Source: Escherichia phage DK-13. From it: a DNA stretch of 64,000 nt. The notes beneath the pieces are model-generated. The model did no database searches, was not told the DNA's origin, and saw nothing but the letters and a program-made list of their open reading frames with translations. The position numbers were made by a program, and so were the translations under genes. Of this stretch, positions 298-50,581 are shown piece after piece. The DNA is taken from the sequence record MT611523.1; one strand, written 5' to 3'. The stretch's first letter is position 1. Each line of letters starts with the position of its first letter.

Positions 298-3200
298 ATG
301 ATGAGTGTTAAAGCCCCTTATGTAACCAGCTTACGGATTGATAAACTATCTGCTAACCAGGTTAGCATAAAATGGGATAATGTTGGCGCCAACTTTTATT
401 ATTTTGTTGAGATTGCTCCGACAAAAGAAAATGGTGTTGCTATTCCAGAAGAAAATCTGTTATGGAGGAATTTAGGTTATACTCCAGACAATGAATGGTT
501 CGAACAAGATTTTATTCGTCCAGTATCATTTTACAAAATGCGTGTTGCTGTTGCAGCAATGGGTTTTGAACAATCTGATTGGGTTTATACCGAAGAATTT
601 GAAACCTTTGCAACTAACGCATACACATTTGAACACATGCGTGAGTTTACATTAACAAATAAATTCATCGAAGAAAAATTCACAAACAATAACCAGGCTT
701 ATATCAACTTTAATAATGATGCAATTATGGCATCGCTGATGTCTGAAGATTTTAGCTTTACTCCTGCTTATTCTCATTTGTCTTCAATTTCAAACTATGT
801 ATTAAAAGAAGACCAATACCATGAAATTCAGGGTAGTATTCAGCCGGTGTGTAACGATGTTAATCGTACGATGATTGCTGAACTCGGTGGTGTACTGTAT
901 TTGTTTGAACGATTCCAGACAACTGTCAAAGTCTCCAATGATAAAGGGCAGAACTGGTATTATGTAAAATTGTTTAATGACCGTATCGGTAACCCAGTAT
1001 CGCGCACAATTTATTATCAATCAGATACGACAACTTATGTACTCGGATATGACCGAATTTTTTACGGTCGTAAATCAAGTGACATAAGATGGTCTGCTGA
1101 TGATGTTCGATTCAGTTCTCAGGATATAACATTTGCAAAAATTGGTTCGGATATCAATCTCGGATTTGATATTGAAATATTTGGCACATACGCAAGACTC
1201 CCGGCATATATCTCAACAATTGCCGAAGCAATTACTACGACCGATTCCATGATTTACGTTGCTGGCCGCGACCGTGTATACAAAGCTAAATCTTCTGATG
1301 CTCCAATTGATAACGACCCTAACTCCCCAACATTCGGTGAAAAATTATTTGAAGCTGGATATAGCACAATAAGCGGCAATCCAAAAGCTGTTTGTTACAA
1401 GATGGATTCAATTGACGGTGAAGTATTTGCATTAATCACGGGTGAAGTAAAGGAAGAACGCCAAGACCCGACTAAGCCTGAAAACGTTGTCGATTCATTA
1501 TCAAAGGGCGTTTATAAATTAAATACCGATACCGATACATGGACACGAGTTTTTGGTAATACAGAGGATGAACGTCGCCGTATTGAACATGGTTACACAA
1601 GCATGTCAACTGATGGAATTGAACTTTTTATCAGTTCAAGTAACTTCCGTTATTCCGTTGAGCCAGATACCGAACTCCCTACTAAGTATCCTGAAGAAGT
1701 TAACGAAGCAGTCAAATATGTGTATGATGAACAATGGATACATGACAAGCATTATTTGATGATGAGTTTTAGGTCAAATAAAGATTCAGGTTGGGAAGAG
1801 TTTAAACCTGGACGTATGTCATATTACGCTGAACCGTTCTTTAACTGGTCTCGCCGTGATGATACTCGTTGTTGGATTACCACATCAGACAGAGCTCTGG
1901 TTGTATATAATGACATGCTGTATCAAAAGATTATCGATACCTTTGGTGGTTCATCCCCTGAACGTATTGTACACGAATACTGGAATAAAGGTCAAGTAAA
2001 AGTTACTTCTCCTAACATCGAATTCAATGGCTTTAAAAAATATGCCTCGGGTATTATGTTACATAAAAATACTGGTGAGCTTATTGGTTATTTTGAATTT
2101 GACTATCGTATGCGTGATGAAGTTAGATTAATCTGGAAACCGAAAGAAGTTATGTTCACTGCAGAATTACAGAACCAGGAACATGATATTCCATGGACCC
2201 CGGATAATGATGAACAAGAGAAAGACCCGGACTTGCGTCCTCTTTTAACAAAGATGGTTCCGGATAGTTATTTGCTCCAGGATAGCAACTTCGAAAAATT
2301 CTGTGAATATTATTTGCAGTTTATCAGTGATGGCTCTGGCACATATTATAACAACCTTTTGAACTTGATTCGCAACCAGTACCCACGCGAGGAAGATGCA
2401 TGGGAATACCTTTGGAGTGAAATGTACAAAAGAAACATATATTTGTCAAAGACCAAGCGTGACGAAGTAGTTCGTTTCTTTGAAGCAAGACAGTCTGATT
2501 TTTGGGCAACCAAGGGGACTGAAGCATCCTATAAGTTTTTATTCAAATTGTTATATAATGAAGACGTTGAAATCGATATTGAATCCAAGAACGGAACCGA
2601 GTATGACATAATTGTCGAATCTGATAATATCAGCGAAGATATTGTTGGGCAAACAATTTACACACCAACCGGCCGCAGTAACGTTACCTATATGGAGCGT
2701 GACTACAAACAGGGTAAATTGAGATGGCGTATCACGATTCATAACTTGCTTGGTCGCTTTATTGTTGGGCAAGAAATTAAATCCGAAAGGACTTCCTTTG
2801 AAGGCATGATTGTTCAGGGCGTTCGCGGGAAAGAATTGCTTAGCAACAACATCGATTATATCAACCGAAATCGTTCTTACTATGTAATGACCATTAAATC
2901 AAGTCTCCCGACATCTCGTTATCGTAATGACGTATTGCGATTTGTTCATCCGGTTGGATTTGGATTTGTTGGAATTACATTATTGACAATGTTTGTTAAT
3001 GCTGGTCTGTCATTAAAACATACAGAAACCATTATCAATAAACTGAACAACTATCGTTGGTCGTCGGGTATTCCGTCAGAATGGTGTGACCGTATTGCAG
3101 TTATTGGAGCCGATGGAAACATTGAGCATAATGCTGTTACAGGCGAAGCAGTATATAATATTGCTCCTAACGCAGGTTTACCGTTCCCATTACCGGCAGA

Positions 3201-3396: not shown

Positions 3397-4393
3397 TTCA
3401 TCTGTAGTTTATCGTTCGATAATTACCTCGAAATTTCGAACTGAAAAAATGTATAACTTTTATAAAATGATTGGTAATGAGCCCGACCAGAATACGATGT
3501 ATGTAACGTTCGGTCGTGCTGAACCCTGGGCTTCGAATGAGAATGACCCGGGGTTCGCCCCTCCTTATCCGGTTGACACAGCACAAGGTGTTGAAGATAC
3601 TTGGACAAATATGATGGGTGCAGTCAAAGTTTATAAGTCAATGCTTGATTGTGTTGTCCCACGTAAAGACTGGGGCGATATCAGATATCCCAATCCGCTT
3701 AACTTCCAGGTAGGGGAAATTGTTGTAGCTAACAGTGCTCCGTATAACCGAACTGATGTTGGTAAAGGTTGGATGGTTTATCGTTGTGTAGACGTTCCTG
3801 ATGTTGGGACTTGCTCCATTTATTCTATTATCAATAAAGAAGAGTGTTTAAAACTCGGTGGTAAATGGACTGCAGAATATAACTCGACGAGAGCTCCAGC
3901 TGGGACTGGTGATACAGAAGGACGAGTCGATATGGGCGATGGTTATCTCTGGGAATATTTGTATGAGATTCCACCTGATGTATCCATCAACCGTTGTACT
4001 AACGAATATATTGTTGTTCCATGGCCTGAAGAAATCGAAGAAGACCCATCACGTTGGGGCTACAAAGACAATATCAGCTGGCAACAAGATGATTTCGGTT
4101 TAATATACAGAATCAAAGGATATACAATCAGATTTAAAGCATTTATGGATTCCATTTATTTCCCAGAGTTCAGTCTTCCAGGGAACAAAGGCTTCCGCCA
4201 GCTGTCGATTATATCCAACCCACTTGAAGTTAAAGTACATCCTAATGACCCAAATATCAAAGCAATCAAAGAATACTACGATGCAATTGATTTGGACCGT
4301 CATTCCGGGGAAATGATTTATATGGAAAACCGCCCACCGATTATTCGTGCAATGGACCAGACAGAAGAAGTTAACATTATTTTTGAATTCTAG
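3389..4393 (+). CDS. gp8: Baseplate wedge protein gp8
   Basis: 334 aa as in T4 gp8; position after gp7; start overlaps gp7 stop. Confidence 0.85.
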   Translation: MNNSSVVYRSIITSKFRTEKMYNFYKMIGNEPDQNTMYVTFGRAEPWASNENDPGFAPPYPVDTAQGVEDTWTNMMGAVKVYKSMLDCVVPRKDWGDIRYPNPLNFQVGEIVVANSAPYNRTDVGKGWMVYRCVDVPDVGTCSIYSIINKEECLKLGGKWTAEYNSTRAPAGTGDTEGRVDMGDGYLWEYLYEIPPDVSINRCTNEYIVVPWPEEIEEDPSRWGYKDNISWQQDDFGLIYRIKGYTIRFKAFMDSIYFPEFSLPGNKGFRQLSIISNPLEVKVHPNDPNIKAIKEYYDAIDLDRHSGEMIYMENRPPIIRAMDQTEEVNIIFEF

Positions 4394-16023: not shown

Positions 16024-18003
16024 ATGGCTTTATTATCTCCGGGCATTGAGCTCAAAGAAACAACGGTCCAAAGCACTGTTGTTCGTAACGCGACGGGTCG
16101 TGCGGCGCTGGTTGGTAAATTCCAGTGGGGCCCAGCTTTCCAGGTAACTCAGATTACAAACGAAGTTGAACTTGTTGATTTGTTTGGTGGTCCGAATAAT
16201 GAAACAGCAGATTACTTTATGAGTGGGATGAACTTCCTGCAATATGGTAATGACCTCCGTACTGTACGTGTTGTTAACCGTGACGAAGCTAAAAACGCAT
16301 CCCCTATTGCTGGCAATATTGAAACTACCATCGTAACTGCTGGTACAAACTATGCTGTCGGTGATGTTATTCAGGTTAAACACAACCAGACTGTTGTTGA
16401 ACCAGCTGGCCGTGTGACCAAGGTCGATGTTGATGGTAAAATTCTGGCAATCTTTATTCCTACCAATAAGATTATTGCATTTGCTAAAACTATTAATCAG
16501 TATCCTAATTTGGGCAGTGCATGGACTGCAGAAGTTACGACCACTTCTTCCGGTGTATCTGGTACCATCACTGTCGGAAAAATTGTTACCGATTCTGGCA
16601 TTCTGTTGACTGAAGCAGAAAACAGTGAAGAAGCAATTACTTCTCTGGAATTCCAGGCATCATTGGCAAAATATGCAATGCCGGGTGTTGTTGCTCTTTA
16701 TCCTGGTGAAATTGGTTCGACTCTTGAAGTTGAAATCGTATCCAAAGCTGAATTTGAAAAAGGCGCAACTGCAAATCTGGATATTTTCCCCGGTGGTGGT
16801 TCCCGCGCTTCTATAGCTCGTGCGGTGTTTAACTATGGCCCTCAGACCGAAAACCAATATGCAATTATCGTTCGCCGCGATGGTGCAATCGTCGAAAACG
16901 TTGTTTTGTCTACTAAGCAGGGCGAAAAAGATGTTTATGGTAATAACATTTACCTGGATGACTACTTTGCAAAAGGTACTTCCAACTACATCTATGCAAC
17001 ATCTCGCAACTGGCCTGTAGGCTTCAGTGGTATCATCAATCTGTCTGGTGGTATTTCTGCAAACGATAAGATTACCGCTGGTGATTTGATGCAAGGTTGG
17101 GACCTGTTCGCTGACCGTGAAGCTCTGCATATCAACCTACTTATCGCTGGTGCTTGTGCTGGTGAAGGTGATGCGACCGCTTCCACTGTTCAGAAGCACG
17201 TAGTTTCTATTGCTGACGAACGTCAGGATTGCTTGGCATTCATTTCCCCGCCGAAAGGTCTGTTGGTTAACGTTCCTCTGACCCGTGCAGTGGATAACCT
17301 GATTGACTGGCGTACAGGTGCTGGTGCATTTGATACCGATAACATGAATATCAGCACGACTTATGCAGCGATTGATGGCAACTATAAATATCAGTATGAT
17401 AAATATAACGACGTTAACCGTTGGGTTCCTCTGGCAGCTGATATGGCTGGTCTGTGTGCTCGTACTGATGATGTTTCTCAGCCTTGGATGTCTCCGGCAG
17501 GTTATAACCGCGGTCAGATTCTGAACGTTCTGAAATTGGCTGTTGAACCACGTCAGACCCAACGTGACCGCATGTATCAGGAAGCTATCAACCCGGTTGT
17601 TGGTTTCGCAGGTGGTGATGGTTTTGTTCTGTATGGTGATAAGACTGCAACTAAAGTTCCATCTCCGATGGACCATATCAACGTTCGCCGTCTTACGAAT
17701 ATGCTGAAGAAAAATATCGGTGACGCATCCAAATATAAACTGTTTGAGCTTAACGATAACTTCACTCGTGCATCATTCCGTATGGAAACTTCTCAATACT
17801 TGGATGGTATTCGTGCGCTCGGTGGCATTTATGAAGGTCGTGTGGTTTGTGATACTACCAACAACACCCCGGCGGTTATTGACCGAAATGAGTTTGTTGC
17901 TAGCATTTATTATAAACCTGCCCGCAGTATTAACTATATACAGCTTAATTTCGTTGCCACTAGCACTGGTGCTGATTTCGATGAGCTGATTGGGCCACAA
18001 TAA
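16024..18003 (+). CDS. gp18: Tail sheath protein gp18
   Basis: 659 aa, same length as T4 gp18; late promoter TATAAATA upstream. Confidence 0.95.
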   Translation: MALLSPGIELKETTVQSTVVRNATGRAALVGKFQWGPAFQVTQITNEVELVDLFGGPNNETADYFMSGMNFLQYGNDLRTVRVVNRDEAKNASPIAGNIETTIVTAGTNYAVGDVIQVKHNQTVVEPAGRVTKVDVDGKILAIFIPTNKIIAFAKTINQYPNLGSAWTAEVTTTSSGVSGTITVGKIVTDSGILLTEAENSEEAITSLEFQASLAKYAMPGVVALYPGEIGSTLEVEIVSKAEFEKGATANLDIFPGGGSRASIARAVFNYGPQTENQYAIIVRRDGAIVENVVLSTKQGEKDVYGNNIYLDDYFAKGTSNYIYATSRNWPVGFSGIINLSGGISANDKITAGDLMQGWDLFADREALHINLLIAGACAGEGDATASTVQKHVVSIADERQDCLAFISPPKGLLVNVPLTRAVDNLIDWRTGAGAFDTDNMNISTTYAAIDGNYKYQYDKYNDVNRWVPLAADMAGLCARTDDVSQPWMSPAGYNRGQILNVLKLAVEPRQTQRDRMYQEAINPVVGFAGGDGFVLYGDKTATKVPSPMDHINVRRLTNMLKKNIGDASKYKLFELNDNFTRASFRMETSQYLDGIRALGGIYEGRVVCDTTNNTPAVIDRNEFVASIYYKPARSINYIQLNFVATSTGADFDELIGPQ

Positions 18004-18045
18004 GACTTTACTTCTGATTTAACTTGGGTTATAATGCGCGTATAA

Positions 18046-18053
18046 TATAAATA
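18046..18053 (+). promoter_or_regulatory. Late promoter TATAAATA inside the palindrome GCGCGTAT-N7-ATACGCGC, upstream of the gp18/gp19 HNH gene
   Basis: Octamer flanked by 8-bp inverted repeat. Confidence 0.55.
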
Positions 18054-18070
18054 CGCGCAAGGATTTACAA

Positions 18071-18676
18071 GTGATTATTTCTAAATTTGTTGAAGTTAAA
18101 ATACGAAATCATGCAAAATGGTGGAGTGAATACTTAGGTAAAACTCTAACATACCATGATGTAATTTCTGTTCCAGTTGAACAAATGCCAGATAATAGTA
18201 ATAAAAAGATTGAGTGTTCCTGTGATGAATGTGGGGTACATTTTGAGCGCGGCATTCAGCTGCTTCGTCGTGTTGATAAACATTTATGTAAAGCATGTTC
18301 AAGAAAAGATATTGGACAAAAGAATGTTATTGCGCAAGGTGGTGTACCAAGACCATGGCAACGCGGTGAAAAACATCATAGCTGGAAGGGTAATAAGCGC
18401 GAATTCTATTTGTATGCTCAACGCGTTCATGCATTGACAAGAGCAAAACATCTAAAGAATATTTGGTCAACATGGGAAAATGCAGATAAGATAGGAAAAT
18501 GTGGAGAAGATGGTGCATATCAACTTGACCACAAAGTTTCTATTGCATATGGATTTTATAATCACATACCAGAGACTGTTATCGCTTCGCTCAACAATTT
18601 AGAAATAGTCACTTGGGAATCTAATAGGTCCAAAGGAAAATCAAATAGTATTGACTTATGGGATATATTATCCTGA
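18071..18676 (+). CDS. Putative HNH-family endonuclease with N-terminal Cys-rich region (free-standing, inserted between gp18 and gp19)
   Basis: GTG start with AAGGA RBS; CxxC...CxxC then YQLDHKVSIAYGF...NNLEIVTWESNRSKG, an HNH-like His/Asn core; no gene lies between 18 and 19 in T4. Confidence 0.6.
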   Translation: MIISKFVEVKIRNHAKWWSEYLGKTLTYHDVISVPVEQMPDNSNKKIECSCDECGVHFERGIQLLRRVDKHLCKACSRKDIGQKNVIAQGGVPRPWQRGEKHHSWKGNKREFYLYAQRVHALTRAKHLKNIWSTWENADKIGKCGEDGAYQLDHKVSIAYGFYNHIPETVIASLNNLEIVTWESNRSKGKSNSIDLWDILS

Positions 18677-18723
18677 CAGTAAATGTAATTAAGCAGTAAA
18701 CCGTAGAACCATTATACAATGCT

Positions 18724-18731
18724 ATAAATAA
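18724..18731 (+). promoter_or_regulatory. Late promoter TATAAATA within the loop of a 10-bp inverted repeat
   Basis: CCGTAGAACC / GGTTCTACGG arms at about 18701-18710 and 18744-18753. Confidence 0.5.
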
Positions 18732-18811
18732 AAGCATATCATCGGTTCTACGGACTCCTCAGAGCTCCTCCAGCGACCTAAATACATTTATTGATGAATC
18801 ATATTACCTAG

Positions 18812-18819
18812 TATAAATA
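18812..18819 (+). promoter_or_regulatory. Late promoter TATAAATA upstream of gp19
   Basis: Octamer about 50 nt upstream of gp19 start. Confidence 0.6.
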
Positions 18820-18871
18820 CATGCATCAGGGACGCGTTCGCGCGACCTGTGTCTATAAAGAGGATTCCTTA

Positions 18872-19363
18872 ATGGAGTTGACCGATATCACACGTGCTTT
18901 CGAATCCGGTGACTTTGCTCGTCCTAACCTGTTCGAAGTCGAAATCCCATTCCTGGGTAAAAACTTTGCTTTCCATTGTAAAGCAGCCCCGATGCCAGCT
19001 GGCATTGTAGAAAAAGTTCCGGTCGGTTACATGAACCGTAAAATCAACGTGGCGGGTGACCGTACATTTGATGACTGGACTATTACGATTTATAACGACG
19101 ATGCTCATAAAGTTCGTCAAGCAATTGTTGATTGGCAAAACCTGTGTCACGGTATGACTAACGAAATCACTGGTGCAGCTCCTGCTGATTATAAGAAAAC
19201 CGCTACTGTCCGCCAGTTCCATCGTGATGGCAAGACCATTACGAAAGAAGTTGTTATTACCGGCATGTGGCCAACCAACGTTGGGGAAGTCCAGATGGAT
19301 TGGGACTCCAATAATGAGATTGAGACGTTTGAAACAACGTTCGCAATTGACTGGTGGGAATAA
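18872..19363 (+). CDS. gp19: Tail tube protein gp19
   Basis: 163 aa from ATG 18872; MELTDITRAFESGDFARPNLFEV matches recalled T4 gp19 N-terminus. Confidence 0.9.
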   Translation: MELTDITRAFESGDFARPNLFEVEIPFLGKNFAFHCKAAPMPAGIVEKVPVGYMNRKINVAGDRTFDDWTITIYNDDAHKVRQAIVDWQNLCHGMTNEITGAAPADYKKTATVRQFHRDGKTITKEVVITGMWPTNVGEVQMDWDSNNEIETFETTFAIDWWE

Positions 19364-19364
19364 G

Positions 19365-19372
19365 TATAAATA
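19365..19372 (+). promoter_or_regulatory. Late promoter TATAAATA upstream of gp20
   Basis: Octamer, followed by hairpin GAGGC-TTCG-GCCTC. Confidence 0.55.
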
Positions 19373-19420
19373 AAGTTATTATGAGGCTTCGGCCTCATTT
19401 CCCAAACTTCGGAGACTCTA

Positions 19421-20995
19421 ATGGCAGGTTTTAACACAATACTAAATTTTCTTAAGCCTTGGGCTAAAGAAGATGAACAAGAATATAAGCAACAAGAAAA
19501 AAATAATTTAGAGTCAATGACCGGGCCGAAGTTTGATGATGGGGCTCGTGAAATTGAGTCACAAGAACAAAACGTCCCGTATAATGCATTGATGCAACAG
19601 ATGTTCGGGAGCAATGAACCTGAAGTAAAAAATACCAGGGAATTAATTGACACCTACCGCAACTTACTAAATAATTATGAAGTTGATAACGCAGTGCAAG
19701 AAATTGTGTCTGATGCTATCGTTTTTGAAGACGGTAAAGATGTTGTAGCTCTTAACCTTGATGCTACCGAATTTAGTCAGAAAATTAAAGACCGAATCCT
19801 CGAAGAATTCTCGGAAGTCAATAACCTCCTTAATTTCGAGCGCAAAGGTTCTGACCACTTTAAACGTTGGTATGTGGATTCTCGAATTTTCTTCCACAAA
19901 ATTATCAACCCATCAAAACTTAAAGATGGAGTTCAAGAACTTCGTCGCCTTGACCCAAGACAAATCCAGTTCATCCGTGAAATCGTTACACGCATGGAAA
20001 ACGGTACAAAAATTGTCGACGGTTACAGAGAATATTTTGTATACGATACTGGCCATGAAAGTTATTGTGCCGATGGTCGTATATATGAAGCAGGTACTAA
20101 AATAAAAATTCCTCGCGCGGCGATTGTATATGCGCATTCTGGATTACTCGATTGTTGTGGCAAGAATATCATCGGATACTTGCAACGAGCAATTAAACCT
20201 GCAAACCAATTAAAACTATTAGAAGATGCTTTAGTCATTTATCGTATAACTCGTGCCCCAGACCGCCGAGTCTTTTATATCGATACCGGGAATATGCCGT
20301 CTCGTAAAGCAGCAGCACACATGCAACATATTATGAACACGATGAAAAACCGTGTCGTATATGATGCAACTACGGGTAAAATCAAAAACCAACAACACAA
20401 CATGTCAATGACAGAAGACTATTGGTTGCAACGTCGTGATGGTAAAGCAGTCACCGAAGTTGATACACTCCCGGGTGCACAAGGCATGTCGGATATGGAC
20501 GATGTTCGCTGGTTTAAGAACAACCTATATCAGGCTCTCCGAATTCCATTATCTCGTATTCCTAACGACCAGAACAGCGGCGTTATGTTTGATGCGGGTG
20601 CGACAATTACTCGCGATGAATTGAATTTCTCTAAATGGATTCGACAGCTACAGAATAAATTTGAAGAAGTTTTCCTCGACCCGCTTAAAACCAACCTTAT
20701 CCTGAAAAAAATTATTTCAGAAGAGGAATGGGAAAAGGAACTAAATAATATTAAAGTTACGTTCAACCGTGATAGCTATTTCACCGAAATGAAAGATGCA
20801 GAAATCATGGAACGCAGAATCAATATGCTAACGATGGCTGAACCGTTTATCGGTAAATATATTTCGCATCAAACGGCTATGAAGGATTTCCTCCAGATGT
20901 CTGATGAAGAAATTAATCAAGAAGCTAAGCAAATTGAATTGGAGTCCAAAGAGGCTCGTTTCCAAAACCCTGAAGAAGAAGAAGAGGATTTCTAA
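19421..20995 (+). CDS. gp20: Portal vertex protein gp20
   Basis: 524 aa as in T4 gp20; synteny. Confidence 0.9.
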
Positions 20996-26478: not shown

Positions 26479-26503
26479 AGGGACCTTCGGGTCCCTTTAT
26501 TTT
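26479..26503. terminator. Bidirectional hairpin AGGGACC-TTCG-GGTCCCT between convergent gp24 and rnlB
   Basis: Stem-loop flanked by A-run and T-run. Confidence 0.7.
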
Positions 26504-27510
26504 TATTCACTAACTAATGCAATCCAAACATGTCTTAATGTTTCTCTTACATTTGTGATGAGTTGCTTTTTAACTTCAACAGGATTTTCCGTCAGGGATA
26601 ATTCAAGACCTTCGCGCCCCGCTTCTTCCAGAATATCTTGGACTGTTAACCCCATTACCTTTCCAAAATCCTTCGGTGTTACTTCCCCAATTTTACTGAT
26701 AACATTGTTGATACGGTTAACAGTCACATAATCAGTGAAATTCCACAGTAAATCCATATCATTTTGGCTCAGAACCACTGCAGCCTTAATAGGCTTATCA
26801 GACTTTTTCTTTTCACTGAATTTAGAGTTCTTACATTTAATCGCTACACGCTCGCCGTTAGGTAACCATGCAGGAACATCAGGTTTTAATACAAATCCTT
26901 CAGCAGTGAATACTTTACCTTCCGCCTTTGCATCAAAATCAGTGGTATTTGCTGTAGTCAAACCTGCGTTATCCACTGTAAAATTGTAATCAGGGACAAC
27001 AGAATCCAGGTCATTAGGGAGCTTAATTAATTCTTCAAAACTACCTGTAGCCAGGCGCGGTGCAACCTTAAACTTATGGATAATACAGAATGCTTCCATC
27101 AAGGTGTCAGTCAGGACGGATTCAAAACCATCTTCTTTAGTAACGCGGATATCAAATACATAAAAATCTTTATCACCGTAATCCACATTCTTCTGGATAC
27201 CTGCCCCGGCAAACTCACCATAAATCTGGTATGCCTGGTAATTAATATCCTGCAAAAGTTTCTGCACAGATTTAATAGAATCAGCATAATTCTTTAATAC
27301 AATTTCATAACCATAGAAATCTTCTGCAGGCAGGATAGGTCCAGTGCGTTTCGCACATGTCACATTGTCTTGTTCAATGATTAATGAAAAGTTGGTACCA
27401 TGAATCTTCTCGCGAGCTACCCATTCACCGCTGGTGAAGCCTTGCAGGCGAATCTTTTCAATGAACTTGTTGTTATAGTGATTTTCAAGGCTGTTGTATT
27501 TCTTAAACAT
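26503..27510 (-). CDS. rnlB: RNA ligase 2 (Rnl2)
   Basis: 335 aa; nucleotidyltransferase lysine motif REKIHGTNF; convergent with gp24. Confidence 0.85.
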
Positions 27511-27599: not shown

Positions 27600-27640
27600 T
27601 CTAGAACCATTATACCACAATTTTATTTGAAGCAAAAAGG
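27600..27640 (-). promoter_or_regulatory. Middle (MotA-box) promoter upstream of rnlB
   Basis: Minus strand reads TTGCTTCA-N13-TATAAT-GGTTCTAGACCCC (approximate coordinates). Confidence 0.5.
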
Positions 27641-29745: not shown

Positions 29746-29763
29746 GATGAACCTCGGTTAGTG

Positions 29764-29771
29764 TATAAATA
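29764..29771 (+). promoter_or_regulatory. Late promoter TATAAATA upstream of uvsW
   Basis: Exact octamer about 30 nt upstream of uvsW ATG. Confidence 0.55.
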
Positions 29772-29799
29772 TAGATATATTTATTACCTTGGAATCATC

Positions 29800-31299
29800 A
29801 TGGATATTAAAATCAACTTTCTAAATTTTAGTCACGTGCATGTTGAATGTGAAGATGGAATCTTCTACGAACTCCGTGATTACTTCAGCTTCGAAGCTGA
29901 AAACTATCGCTTCAATCCAAAGTTCAAGCAGGGAGTTTGGGACGGACGTATCCGCCTCCTGGATTACAATCGTAAATTACCATACGGTTTGGTTAATCAA
30001 ATTAAAAAGTTCGCTGACCAGTTTGGCTATTCATTCTGGATTGACCCGCAAATCACCGAGAAAGAAGAAATCTCTCGCGAAGAATTCAACAAATGGGTTG
30101 AGTCAAAAGAAATCTATTCAGGCAATACCAAGATAACTCCTCATTGGTATCAATCTGACGCCGTATATGATGGTCTGGTCAACAGAAGAAAGATTCTGAA
30201 CTTACCTACGTCTGCAGGTAAAAGCCTCATCCAGGCGCTTCTGGCGCGATATTATCTCGAGAACTATGAAGGCAAGGTGCTTATCCTTGTTCCTACAACT
30301 GCGCTTGTTGACCAGATGATTAATGACTTTGTTGATTATCGGCTTTTCCCTCGTGCAGCTTGTCTGGGTATTCGTTCCGGGACTAAACGCGATTCTGATG
30401 CGATGATTTATGTATCGACTTATCAGACGGCTGTAAAACAACCTAAAGAATGGTTTGAACAGTTTGGCCAGTTTATGAATGACGAATGCCACATGGCTAC
30501 AGGTAAATCGATTTCGACGGTTATCGAAGGCCTTACGAATTGCATGTTTAAATTTGGTCTGTCAGGTTCACTCCGTGATGGCAAAGCCAACCTTATGCAA
30601 TATATGGGTCTGTTTGGTGATATCTTTAAACCAGTATCAACATCTAAATTAATGGAAGATGGCCAGGTTACTGACCTTAAAATAAATAGTATTTTCCTTC
30701 GTTACCCTGATGAATTCACCGTTAAAATGAAAGGTAAAACTTATCAGGATGAAATCAAGGTAATTACAAAAGCTACACGCAGAAATAAATGGGTAACAAA
30801 CCTTGCCCTCAAGCTTTCTAAAAAAGATGAAAACGTCTTTTTGATGTTTAAGAATATCGAGCACGGTAAATCGATGTTTGAAATGATTAAGGAAGCTGGT
30901 CATGAAAAAGTGTATTATGTTTCTGGGGAAGTCGATACCGAAACTCGTAATGCTCTGAAGGTCATGGCAGAGAATGGAAAGGGAATTATTGTTGTAGCTT
31001 CATATGGTGTATTCTCGACGGGGATTTCCGTTAAAAACCTCCATCATATTATTTTCGCTCACCCAGTCAAGTCAAAGGTAATTGTACTCCAGACAATTGG
31101 CCGCGTGCTTCGAAAACATGAATCCAAATCACAAGCAAACGTTTTTGATATCGTTGACGATATGGGTGTTAAACCTAAATCGGCAAATGCTAAAAAGAAA
31201 TATGTTCATTTGAACTTTGCCCTAAAGCATGGCCTTGAACGTATACAAAGATATGCTGATGAACGGTTTAACTATGTAATTAAACAGGTGGAAATTTGA
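29800..31299 (+). CDS. uvsW: UvsW DNA/RNA helicase
   Basis: Start MDIKINFLNFSHVHVECEDG matches recalled T4 UvsW; Walker A LPTSAGKS, DECH box. Confidence 0.9.
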   Translation: MDIKINFLNFSHVHVECEDGIFYELRDYFSFEAENYRFNPKFKQGVWDGRIRLLDYNRKLPYGLVNQIKKFADQFGYSFWIDPQITEKEEISREEFNKWVESKEIYSGNTKITPHWYQSDAVYDGLVNRRKILNLPTSAGKSLIQALLARYYLENYEGKVLILVPTTALVDQMINDFVDYRLFPRAACLGIRSGTKRDSDAMIYVSTYQTAVKQPKEWFEQFGQFMNDECHMATGKSISTVIEGLTNCMFKFGLSGSLRDGKANLMQYMGLFGDIFKPVSTSKLMEDGQVTDLKINSIFLRYPDEFTVKMKGKTYQDEIKVITKATRRNKWVTNLALKLSKKDENVFLMFKNIEHGKSMFEMIKEAGHEKVYYVSGEVDTETRNALKVMAENGKGIIVVASYGVFSTGISVKNLHHIIFAHPVKSKVIVLQTIGRVLRKHESKSQANVFDIVDDMGVKPKSANAKKKYVHLNFALKHGLERIQRYADERFNYVIKQVEI

Positions 31300-31991
31300 A
31301 TTATCAAAAAATATATGATGATTTAATTGGGAGCCGAAAGGCTTCCAAACCAATTGGATATACGGAATCTCACCATATTATTCCAGAATGTATGGGTGGA
31401 CCTGATACACAAGAAAACAGAGTCAACCTTACTCCAGAAGAACATTTCGTTGCGCATAAATTATTGGCCAAAATTCATCCTAATCATTACGGTCTTATAA
31501 AGGCCGTCATTGCTATGGGTATGAGCTCTCGAACACATCAACGACAATTTAATAAATCGTATGGATGGGAGCGTAGACAAATGTCAGTTCTTCAAACTGG
31601 TGAAGGTAATCCTTTTTATGGTAAGCACCATACTGAAGAACATAAAGAATATATGAGCCAATTATTAAAGGGTCGCAAAATAACTTGGGCCGATAAAATA
31701 TCTGCGACAAAGAAAGCGAATCCGTATAAATACTCTCAAGCACAATGTCAAGCTATATCTGAAAGAAATAAAGGTGAAGGTAATTGGATGTATGGTAAAT
31801 CACATACACCAGAAGCATCAAAGAAAATTTCAGATAAAGCAAAAGAACGTTATAAGGACCCATCCAAAAATCCTGCCGCTAAGAAAGTGGTTTTAAACGG
31901 GATTGAATATGGTTCGATGAAGCAAGCTTCTGTAGCAACGGGGCTTTCTTTATATAAAATCAGAAATTTAATTAAACAGGTGGAAATATAA
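31296..31991 (+). CDS. HNH homing endonuclease, Mob-like
   Basis: YTESHHIIPECMGG HNH core; repeated NxxYGKxHTxE modules; apparent TTG start preceded by AGGTGG. Confidence 0.85.
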   Translation: MNYQKIYDDLIGSRKASKPIGYTESHHIIPECMGGPDTQENRVNLTPEEHFVAHKLLAKIHPNHYGLIKAVIAMGMSSRTHQRQFNKSYGWERRQMSVLQTGEGNPFYGKHHTEEHKEYMSQLLKGRKITWADKISATKKANPYKYSQAQCQAISERNKGEGNWMYGKSHTPEASKKISDKAKERYKDPSKNPAAKKVVLNGIEYGSMKQASVATGLSLYKIRNLIKQVEI

Positions 31992-33269: not shown

Positions 33270-33312
33270 TCTAGAACCATTATACAGCCATAAAATTAAA
33301 GCATTAACCGTT
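33270..33312 (-). promoter_or_regulatory. Middle (MotA-box) promoter upstream of uvsY
   Basis: Minus strand reads AATGCTTTA-N12-TATAAT-GGTTCTAGACCC. Confidence 0.55.
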
Positions 33313-50521: not shown

Positions 50522-50581
50522 TTTGTTTTCCTCATGTGTTGATGAAATTCATTATACACCATCCATGGTGAAAGTAAACAC

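Follow-up and report, generated by a model that had tools for sequence, protein, structure and literature searches.

Introduction

I-TevIII, from the nrdB intron of the T-even phage RB3, joins an HNH domain to a zinc-finger DNA-binding domain. The homing endonuclease genes I-TevI, I-TevII, I-TevIII, segB, Aeh1 mobE and seg43(25) share a regulatory design that combines a hairpin with a late promoter (PMC2988022). In the T4 family these hairpins are stable and lie at the ribosome-binding site, and the late promoter is positioned such that no hairpin can form in its transcripts (PMC2988022). Promoter-stem-loop cassettes, termed PeSL and PmSL, have also been described (Arbiol 2010, PMC2839356; Comeau 2014, PMC4122927), and the PST/T4 PeSL promoter consensus is TTTACW-N17-TAYWAT (PMC4122927). 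In the T4-related phage LIMEstone1, the Hef-like gene F-LimVIII is located immediately upstream of the tail-tube gene (PMC3296691); Hef belongs to a Vsr-like (EDxHD) nuclease family (PMC3239194). Here, we analyzed a gene located between the tail sheath gene gp18 and the tail tube gene gp19 in a 64,000-nucleotide stretch of Escherichia phage DK-13 (MT611523.1), which is referred to below as the window. After analyzing the locus, its relatives and the encoded protein, we concluded that this gene is probably a free-standing HNH-type homing endonuclease gene of the gp19.1 family.

The window derives from a T4-type phage of the genus Gaprivervirus and is 99.1% identical to Escherichia phage vB_EcoM_RZ over positions 17000-19900. 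A first-pass annotation had noted that T4 contains no gene between genes 18 and 19, which is correct, as the gap in T4 measures 116 bp. It had also described a 201-amino-acid (aa) open reading frame (ORF) with a GTG start, a Cys-rich N-terminus and the core LDHKVSIAYGF...NNLEIVTWESNRSKG, together with flanking signals. All of these sequence features were found, at the positions given or at most one base away. The ORF product matches PHROG 5104 (function unknown; E = 1.7e-76), and the copy in phage VR7 is annotated as "gp19.1 hypothetical protein, similar to T6 gp19.1".

An inserted gene at the sheath/tube junction

Alignment of Gapriverviruses placed the gene in an inserted cassette (Table 1), directly 3′ of the gp18 stop codon and 5′ of the hairpin and late promoter resident after gp18. 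The insert is carried by RZ, VR7 and TH57 (megablast) and by DCP80, and is missing from SP18, VR20, VR25, EAWsc9 and about 20 other Gapriverviruses, whose flanks are 94-97% identical by megablast. In SP18, EAWsc9, VR25 and VR20, the place of the cassette is taken by about 19-22 bp (TTATCATCGCTTAGAAAGA...). The same insertion point, just after the gp18 stop codon, emerged when T4 was compared with RB3 and PST and when Dhakavirus L019 was compared with L021; in T4 the empty site is clean and reads TAA-TACGGTGC-ATTCTAAAGG. Close relatives are therefore polymorphic for presence and absence at one locus with a clean empty site. The alignments with insert-less loci bear out the first-pass view of the ORF as an insertion relative to T4 and most close relatives. 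In the comparison of the 18/19 region across T4-like phages, the insert was indeed absent from most of them, whereas the downstream signals that had been grouped with it were present without it.

The distribution of the family points to the same junction. In an unbiased sample collected through gp19 alone (79 loci, with 77 gp18-gp19 loci), the gp18-gp19 gap measures either 20-210 bp, without an ORF, or 650-900 bp, and every long gap (7/7) holds a gp19.1-family member on the plus strand. A second set of loci, chosen through the gp19.1-family protein, showed the same sheath/tube position in Tequatrovirus (RB3, PST), Dhakavirus, and Shewanella, Vibrio and Sinorhizobium phages. Acinetobacter phages also use this locus, and the location is the same in metagenomic phages with sheath proteins of 829-995 aa. 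In Vibrio phage vB_VmeM-32 (L010), the family member is split into two overlapping frames (1648-2508 and 2360-2752), and either the copy is decaying or the sequence contains a frameshift error. Mobility of the gene is inferred from its presence and absence among near-identical phages and from this strictly conserved location.

A paralogous subfamily of 227 aa, about 31-36% identical, is likewise built from a zinc ribbon and an H-N-N domain. It occupies a second insertion point within this intergenic region, immediately before the gp19 ATG, where the inserted gene takes the place of the proximal gp19 late promoter and comes with a hairpin and TATAAATA of its own. In one of the phages with this paralogue, Dhakavirus vB_EcoM_005 (L009), a gene annotated as an HNH endonuclease lies between gp19 and gp20 (3747-4328), so that the tail-tube gene is flanked on both sides by nuclease genes. 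Upstream of the sheath gene in one metagenomic T4-like contig (L096, 1-1426), the large-terminase gene encodes 882 residues rather than 582 and has a weak LAGLIDADG_3 match. This points to an intein or an endonuclease insertion in one contig of an otherwise identical pair.

Allele relationships and the insert-linked block

The allele in the window is 59% identical to that of PST, 45% to that of RB3 and 49% to that of QL01. In contrast, gp18 and gp19 are 92-94% identical to those of QL01 and only 70-79% identical to those of PST and RB3. Therefore, the similarity of the alleles disagrees with the relatedness of the phages. PST and RB3 carry very different alleles within identical flanks. Moreover, the DCP80 allele (L094, 2514-3164) is chimeric: the N-terminal half, with a LGYDLKPLGAAKWGY insertion, follows the QL01/RB3 type, its C-terminal 60 residues are identical to those of the window, and in its upstream hairpin loop TATAAATA is changed to TAATAAATA. 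Between the window and VR7 alleles, 22 synonymous and 4 non-synonymous changes were counted, and the ratio of non-synonymous to synonymous rates (dN/dS) of 0.04 indicates an intact gene under strong purifying selection.

A block of 39 nucleotides (nt) just past the resident hairpin is linked to the insert. It is common to all insert-carrying Gapriverviruses (RZ/window, VR7, TH57 and DCP80), whereas the insert-less SP18, EAWsc9, VR25 and VR20 have an unrelated 39-nt block instead; the hairpin between the insert and this block is the same in carriers and insert-less phages. The block may have been co-converted as a marker, or it may represent a variant of the target or of immunity. No equivalent block was found in the Dhakavirus or T-even pairs.

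These data also bear on an alternative that we consider unlikely, namely that gp19.1 is an accessory gene of the tail module, either ancestral or domesticated, which passes down vertically and has been lost on repeated occasions. Its product would then work for the phage and not for its own spread; it might, for example, exclude rival phages, break down host DNA or control the expression of tail genes. The low dN/dS would suit such a gene, as would a position that is the same from the E. coli T-evens to Sinorhizobium phiM7 and the metagenomic phages with 829-995 aa sheaths; in addition, this N-terminal domain was never seen at another locus among the loci examined. However, vertical descent sits poorly with presence and absence among genomes more than 94% identical, in at least four genera and with clean empty sites. 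It is equally at odds with alleles that disagree with the phage phylogeny, with the strong difference between PST and RB3 within identical flanks and with the existence of a chimeric allele. Relatives of the protein bear NUMOD3, a typical homing-endonuclease module, and exclusion of a competitor by cleavage and homing are mechanistically one act. A homing endonuclease gene thus remains our preferred explanation.

The encoded protein is a putative divergent HNH nuclease

The protein comprises an N-terminal C4 zinc ribbon and a C-terminal domain that appears to be a divergent HNH (H-N-N) nuclease of the beta-beta-alpha-metal type, as judged from its invariant residues and from the domain fusions of its relatives. 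In a comparison of 22 homologues, C51, C54, C73 and C76 of the motif CxxC-x18-CxxC are invariant, and so are D153, H154, N176 and N185. The D, H, N, W, N and K residues remain invariant across 57 and across 128 distant domain sequences, and DH...N...N is constant while the remaining domain diverges to about 30% identity. The C-terminal motif can be written as YQLDH(154)-x21-N(176)L-x7-N(185)xxK or, with its glycine, as YQLDH-x6-G-x14-NL-x7-N-x2-K.

The canonical HNH motif is DHxxP...GG...NL...CN..K, and the gp19.1 pattern mirrors it minus its cysteines; among the 22 homologues, the domain lacks the canonical CxxC pairs that flank many HNH motifs. The HNH signature D/H-H...N...H/N on a strand-strand-helix unit is present. 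In an AlphaFold2 (AF2) model with a predicted local distance difference test (pLDDT) score of 84, strands 150-154 and 177-181 and helix 182-188 carry the motif residues. A Foldseek search of BFVD (viral models) gave significant matches, down to E = 1e-5, named HNH endonuclease, endonuclease-like protein and homing endonuclease. The Foldseek search of the AF2 model against the PDB returned nothing significant; a fold likeness to solved HNH nucleases was found, and the best structural matches are active HNH nucleases. H154 is likely the general base, and N176 and N185 are likely the structural and metal-binding asparagines.

A profile search yielded 171 relatives, in some of which the same C-terminal module stands behind helix-turn-helix (HTH) arrays, zinc ribbons or DUF7487. 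An exhaustive hidden Markov model (HMM) search with the C-terminal domain alone reached 4,200 cluster representatives. In the best 128 of the proteins sharing this domain, NUMOD3 occurs in 17 and HTH arrays in many, while HNH models match weakly and below threshold (HNH_4 in 5/128, best E = 1.8e-4; HNH in 2/128). The build is therefore modular, a nuclease domain combined with interchangeable DNA-binding modules (NUMOD3, HTH arrays, zinc ribbons, DUF7487), and the zinc ribbon of gp19.1 would be its DNA-recognition module. One HTH-type relative with a different N-terminal domain occupies another locus, beside baseplate genes, which fits an N-terminal module that sets the target. The protein belongs to a large putative nuclease subfamily that is so far uncharacterised, and its C-terminal domain is without a Pfam model. 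A literature search gave nothing relevant on "gp19.1" or on a homing endonuclease between genes 18 and 19.

We also considered whether the protein might be a zinc-finger DNA- or RNA-binding regulator without nuclease activity, in which DH...N...N is a structural relic. The lack of a direct match to curated HNH models and of the canonical CxxC pairs would be expected of such a protein. A relic, however, would hardly keep D153, H154, N176 and N185 invariant in a domain that falls to about 30% identity, and the best structural matches are active nucleases, while several relatives weakly reach the HNH_4 and HNH models. We regard the regulator as highly improbable and the nuclease assignment as preferable.

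No paralogue of gp19.1 was found elsewhere in the window. Another gene of homing-endonuclease type, at 31296-31991 on the plus strand with a TTG start, directly follows a uvsW-like ORF (29761-31299). Its product has an N-terminal classic HNH motif (ESHHIIPECMGG...N...EHFVAHK) and two NUMOD3 motifs (Pfam E = 6.7e-19), and shows no similarity to gp19.1. This is probably the HNH gene that the first-pass annotation had counted as its first, and it was right to call the two unrelated in sequence.

Signals upstream of the gene

A consensus scan revealed a sigma-70 (T4 early-type) promoter-like site ahead of the gene, which the first-pass annotation had overlooked and which fits the PST/T4 PeSL consensus. 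The promoter and the stem that follows are kept in VR7, TH57, DCP80 and QL01. Of the three TTTACW-type sites in the window, no other is on the plus strand. The other two (TTTACW-N16-18-TAYWAT), at 50578 and 40939 on the minus strand, have a short stem-loop between -35 and -10 followed by ...ACATGAGGAAAACAAAATG, the arrangement of classic PeSL cassettes on the early strand.

The transcript of this region is predicted to fold into a two-helix structure of -18 kcal/mol (z = -4.1), and 0 of 200 shuffled sequences folded as stably. When 4 alleles were folded to a consensus, the outer helix persisted through one compensatory and two wobble changes. In the computed folds, RNAs from the predicted starts at about 18042 (early) or about 18059 (late) are unstructured (-3 kcal/mol), and a read-through gp18 RNA forms the entire structure. 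The late promoter motif TATAAATA is present in the loop in the window, VR7 and TH57 and absent from the same loop in DCP80 and QL01. At the same place, RB3, PST and Thanatos-2 have a GGGGCUUCGGCCCC hairpin, and the Acinetobacter phages have a hairpin enclosing TATAAATA. Rfam gave nothing in 17800-19000.

The late promoter inside a palindrome, which had been described as unusual, is present as described. However, it is a documented design of T4-family homing endonuclease genes (PMC2988022), and the match to this design and to that of PeSLs makes the upstream signals typical.

Signals downstream of the gene and a candidate antisense promoter

Downstream of the gene lies an inverted repeat whose predicted fold is stable on both strands (z = -4.5 on the plus strand and -5.2 on the minus strand). 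It encloses the first of two gp19 late promoter motifs; the second, proximal one had been overlooked in the first-pass annotation. T4, RB3 and PST have an analogous hairpin followed by TATAAATA at the same relative place, twice in T4. The inverted repeat, its TATAAATA and the motif on its minus strand are nearly unchanged in the insert-less SP18, EAWsc9, VR25 and VR20. Therefore, these signals belong to the resident gp19 upstream region and not to the insert, of which they had been taken to be an unusual part.

On the minus strand, this stretch reads ATGCTTTTA (18737->18729)-N12-TATAAT (18716->18711)-GGTTCTACGG, exactly as first reported, and contains a candidate Mot-like middle promoter with a predicted transcription start at about 18704. 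Scored against the MotA consensus, (a/t)(a/t)(a/t)TGCTT(t/c)A located 11-13 bp upstream of TAnnnT, the site TGCTTTT-N13-TATAAT agrees at 6/7 core positions. Because its core is TGCTTTT and not TGCTT(t/c)A, a strict consensus search misses it. A relaxed pattern (at most one mismatch in the box, exact TATAAT) occurs at 9 sites in the window, where Markov-1 simulations give about 1, and the minus (early/middle) strand holds 8 of the 9 sites. An exact 15-nt block on the minus strand, TGTATAATGGTTCTA, is found both here (18704-18718) and at 33272-33286, with the canonical Mot-type site 33279-33303. A 14-nt identity links the site to 27602-27615, with the canonical site 27609-27634 upstream of the RNA ligase 2 gene (26503-27510). 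The -10 element is kept, as CATTATAC on the plus strand, inside the intergenic hairpins of Dhakavirus and of the unassigned loci L038/L040, which are without a plus-strand TATAAATA at that spot.

The enrichment of the pattern, the shared blocks and the conserved -10 element make a real antisense middle promoter, which would pre-date the insertion, plausible, if still somewhat short of probable; the one-base departure from the MotA core consensus weighs against it. The first-pass annotation had allowed that the motif might be a plus-strand element shared by all gp19 upstream regions. All Gaprivervirus gp19 upstream regions that were examined have it, whereas its plus-strand nature was not established. 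A 75-codon ORF antisense to the 3′ end of gp18 (17773-18000, minus strand) lies downstream of the candidate promoter and is probably spurious.

A broader pair of proposals, which we hold jointly only as a tentative possibility, would extend these observations. The nuclease family represented by the C-terminal module would be very large, with at least 4,200 clusters at 50% identity, and its zinc-ribbon branch, a lineage of homing endonucleases, would have tracked the sheath/tube junction through the whole T4 superfamily. The resident hairpin would be a bidirectional promoter module, late on one strand and Mot-type middle on the other, producing antisense RNA over gp19.1 and the 3′ end of gp18.

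The hairpins at both ends of the insert, together with a left end that follows the published PST/T4 order and consensus (promoter, stem-loop, Shine-Dalgarno sequence, start codon), raise the question of whether PeSL-mediated modular shuffling moved the cassette, with no part in transfer for the encoded protein. A promoter and a stem-loop upstream of the Shine-Dalgarno sequence are indeed present; the repeated recombination-linker element of PeSLs is not, as neither a repeat linking the two hairpins nor a second copy of the cassette ends was found in the window. The two hairpins have no common sequence, and the T-even, Shewanella and Acinetobacter versions have the hairpin only, without an early promoter. 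Furthermore, shuffling has been described for hyperplastic regions, leaves one family at one core-gene junction across genera unexplained, and does not account for catalytic-type residues that are invariant over thousands of relatives. We therefore judge this explanation to be very unlikely, and homing by the encoded enzyme to be the better one.

Table 1. Features of the gp18-gp19 region and of the gp19.1 protein (window positions unless another sequence or residues are named)
Feature	Position	Strand	Remarks
gp18 (tail sheath)	16024-18003		
gp19 (tail tube)	18872-19363		
Inserted cassette	18004..18685	+	About 682 bp; alignment of insert-carrying and insert-less Gapriverviruses
gp19.1-family gene	18071-18676	+	201 aa, GTG start, between gp18 and gp19
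C4 zinc-ribbon domain	About residues 1-100		N-terminal
Putative divergent HNH (H-N-N) nuclease domain	About residues 125-190		C-terminal
Sigma-70 (T4 early-type) promoter-like site	18007..18035	+	TTTACT(18007)-N17-TATAAT(18030-18035); 10/12 consensus positions
Palindrome arms	18036-18043; 18051-18058		GCGCGTAT; ATACGCGC
T4-type late promoter motif	18046-18053	+	TATAAATA; hairpin loop and 3′ arm
Predicted two-helix RNA structure	18022..18072	+	Inner stem 18035-18043/18051-18059
Outer 5-bp helix	18022-18026 with 18068-18072		Encloses the Shine-Dalgarno sequence and, partly, the GTG
Shine-Dalgarno sequence	18059-18063		AAGGA, 7 nt 5′ of the GTG start
Resident 10-bp inverted repeat	18701..18753		Arms CCGTAGAACC 18701-18710, GGTTCTACGG 18744-18753
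Candidate Mot-like middle promoter	18711..18737	-	TGCTTTT (18736->18730), 13-nt spacer, TATAAT (18716->18711); points into gp19.1 and gp18
First gp19 late promoter motif	18723..18730	+	TATAAATA; loop of resident hairpin
Insert-linked 39-nt block	18754..18792		Just past resident hairpin; 23-25 mismatches in 50 nt with insert-less phages, 2 with VR7
Second, proximal gp19 late promoter motif	18812..18819	+	TATAAATA
227-aa paralogue copies	VR26 (L003/L013) 1711-2394; Dhakavirus 005 (L009/L020) 2501-3184		

Putative mechanism

We provide a putative mechanism for the spread of gp19.1. When a carrier and an insert-less relative infect the same cell, the enzyme would nick or cut the naive genome at a site within or close to the conserved sheath/tube junction, and T4-type recombinational repair would then copy the gene and nearby markers across, that is, intron-less homing. 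The cassette would be expressed from its own sigma-70 early-type promoter and, in the window allele, also from the late promoter within the hairpin. Transcripts of either promoter would have an open ribosome-binding site. In the read-through gp18 late mRNA, the two-helix structure would close over the Shine-Dalgarno sequence and extend into the weak GTG start codon, and this may limit the output of a potentially toxic nuclease.

Several results weigh against this explanation. For the nuclease, no HNH match to the ORF protein was found in Pfam (HNH, HNH_3, HNH_4, HNH_5) at E <= 10, where the best hint is DUF4379 (E = 0.1), and NCBIfam and PADLOC models gave no match to it. The HNH or HNH_3 domain anticipated by the first-pass annotation was thus not recovered directly by profile search; only relatives reach HNH_4 and HNH, weakly. 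Against PDB sequences, the full-length profile returned zinc-finger matches only, and the domain profile returned spurious leucine-rich repeat (LRR) matches, caused by its "NLQ" segment. For homing, a cleavage target was sought from the divergence of the flanks and not identified, and this divergence is inconsistent between genera. The strong purifying selection and the fixed position across very distant phages would also fit an often-lost, vertically inherited accessory gene. For expression control, the covariation in the outer helix comes from 4 sequences only, and the loop late promoter is missing in 2/5 allele types, so that this part of the regulation is not general.

Significance

If our assignment is correct, a protein that is widespread but annotated as "hypothetical" (T6 and VR7 gp19.1, PHROG 5104) acquires a function. 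The assignment would also reveal an HNH-like domain family of thousands of clusters that is missed by current domain libraries, and homing endonucleases in phage genomes would therefore be under-counted. The sheath/tube junction would be a homing hotspot conserved across very distant T4-type phages, with two paralogous subfamilies and two insertion points. A homing enzyme at this site would bias the inheritance of markers in phage crosses and cocktails, and gp19.1 could yield a site-specific nickase or nuclease of a new kind. The candidate middle promoter that runs antisense to late genes offers a lead on "anti-late" transcription; if the bidirectional module is real, it would mean timed antisense control of a selfish nuclease and a late structural gene.

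Comparison with known systems

Small HNH nucleases with solved structures, Gme HNH (4h9d) and the phage GVE2 HNH (5h0o), share only 8-20% identity with gp19.1 and lack its N-terminal zinc-ribbon domain, and the terminase-associated HNH proteins of phages have a different role. I-TevIII is also built from an HNH catalytic domain and a zinc-finger part, but it is intron-encoded (it is listed in Table 1 of PMC2988022). With the I-TevIII family, hhalign gave only an 11-residue CxxC match at a probability of 0.6%, and we therefore do not place gp19.1 and I-TevIII in the same family. More widely, no homology to RB3 MobE, to the mob-like HNH-NUMOD3 protein of the window or to I-TevIII was found (hhalign probability <= 0.6%; BLASTP E = 0.72).

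LIMEstone1 F-LimVIII and gp19.1 are alike in being, in the latter case putatively, homing endonuclease genes just upstream of a tail-tube gene. This likeness and the "hef-like" class in Petrov's table suggested a Hef-like identity, which was rejected because Hef is Vsr-like and not HNH.

The upstream element of gp19.1 resembles a PeSL in its order of TTTACT-N17-TATAAT, stem-loop, Shine-Dalgarno sequence and start codon, and the downstream TGCTT Mot box and -10 associated with a stem-loop are PmSL-like. However, PeSLs are repeated elements, found chiefly in hyperplastic regions on the early strand, with a stem that lies over the -10 or between it and the -35, whereas the elements of the window are single-copy, lie in a late structural region and have a stem that follows or encloses the promoter.

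In its upstream hairpin and late promoter, gp19.1 is like I-TevI, I-TevII, I-TevIII, segB and Aeh1 mobE. In seg43(25), the hairpin lies immediately upstream of an unsequestered ribosome-binding site (PMC2988022), as does the inner stem of gp19.1. The gp19.1 element differs from those hairpins in that a sigma-70 early-type promoter precedes it, in that the late promoter is not in all alleles, and in being known from sequence and folding. The gene also resembles MobA-E, the free-standing HNH homing endonucleases of T4-type phages, which are similarly wedged between core genes and sporadic in close relatives, and which share an HNH-type catalytic motif and tight expression control (PMC2988022). 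Unlike MobA-E, gp19.1 has a putative C-terminal H-N-N nuclease domain, an N-terminal C4 zinc ribbon and no NUMOD3 or NUMOD4 in the protein itself. The cassette is of a kind that is ordinary for T4-like phages, with T4-style expression control.

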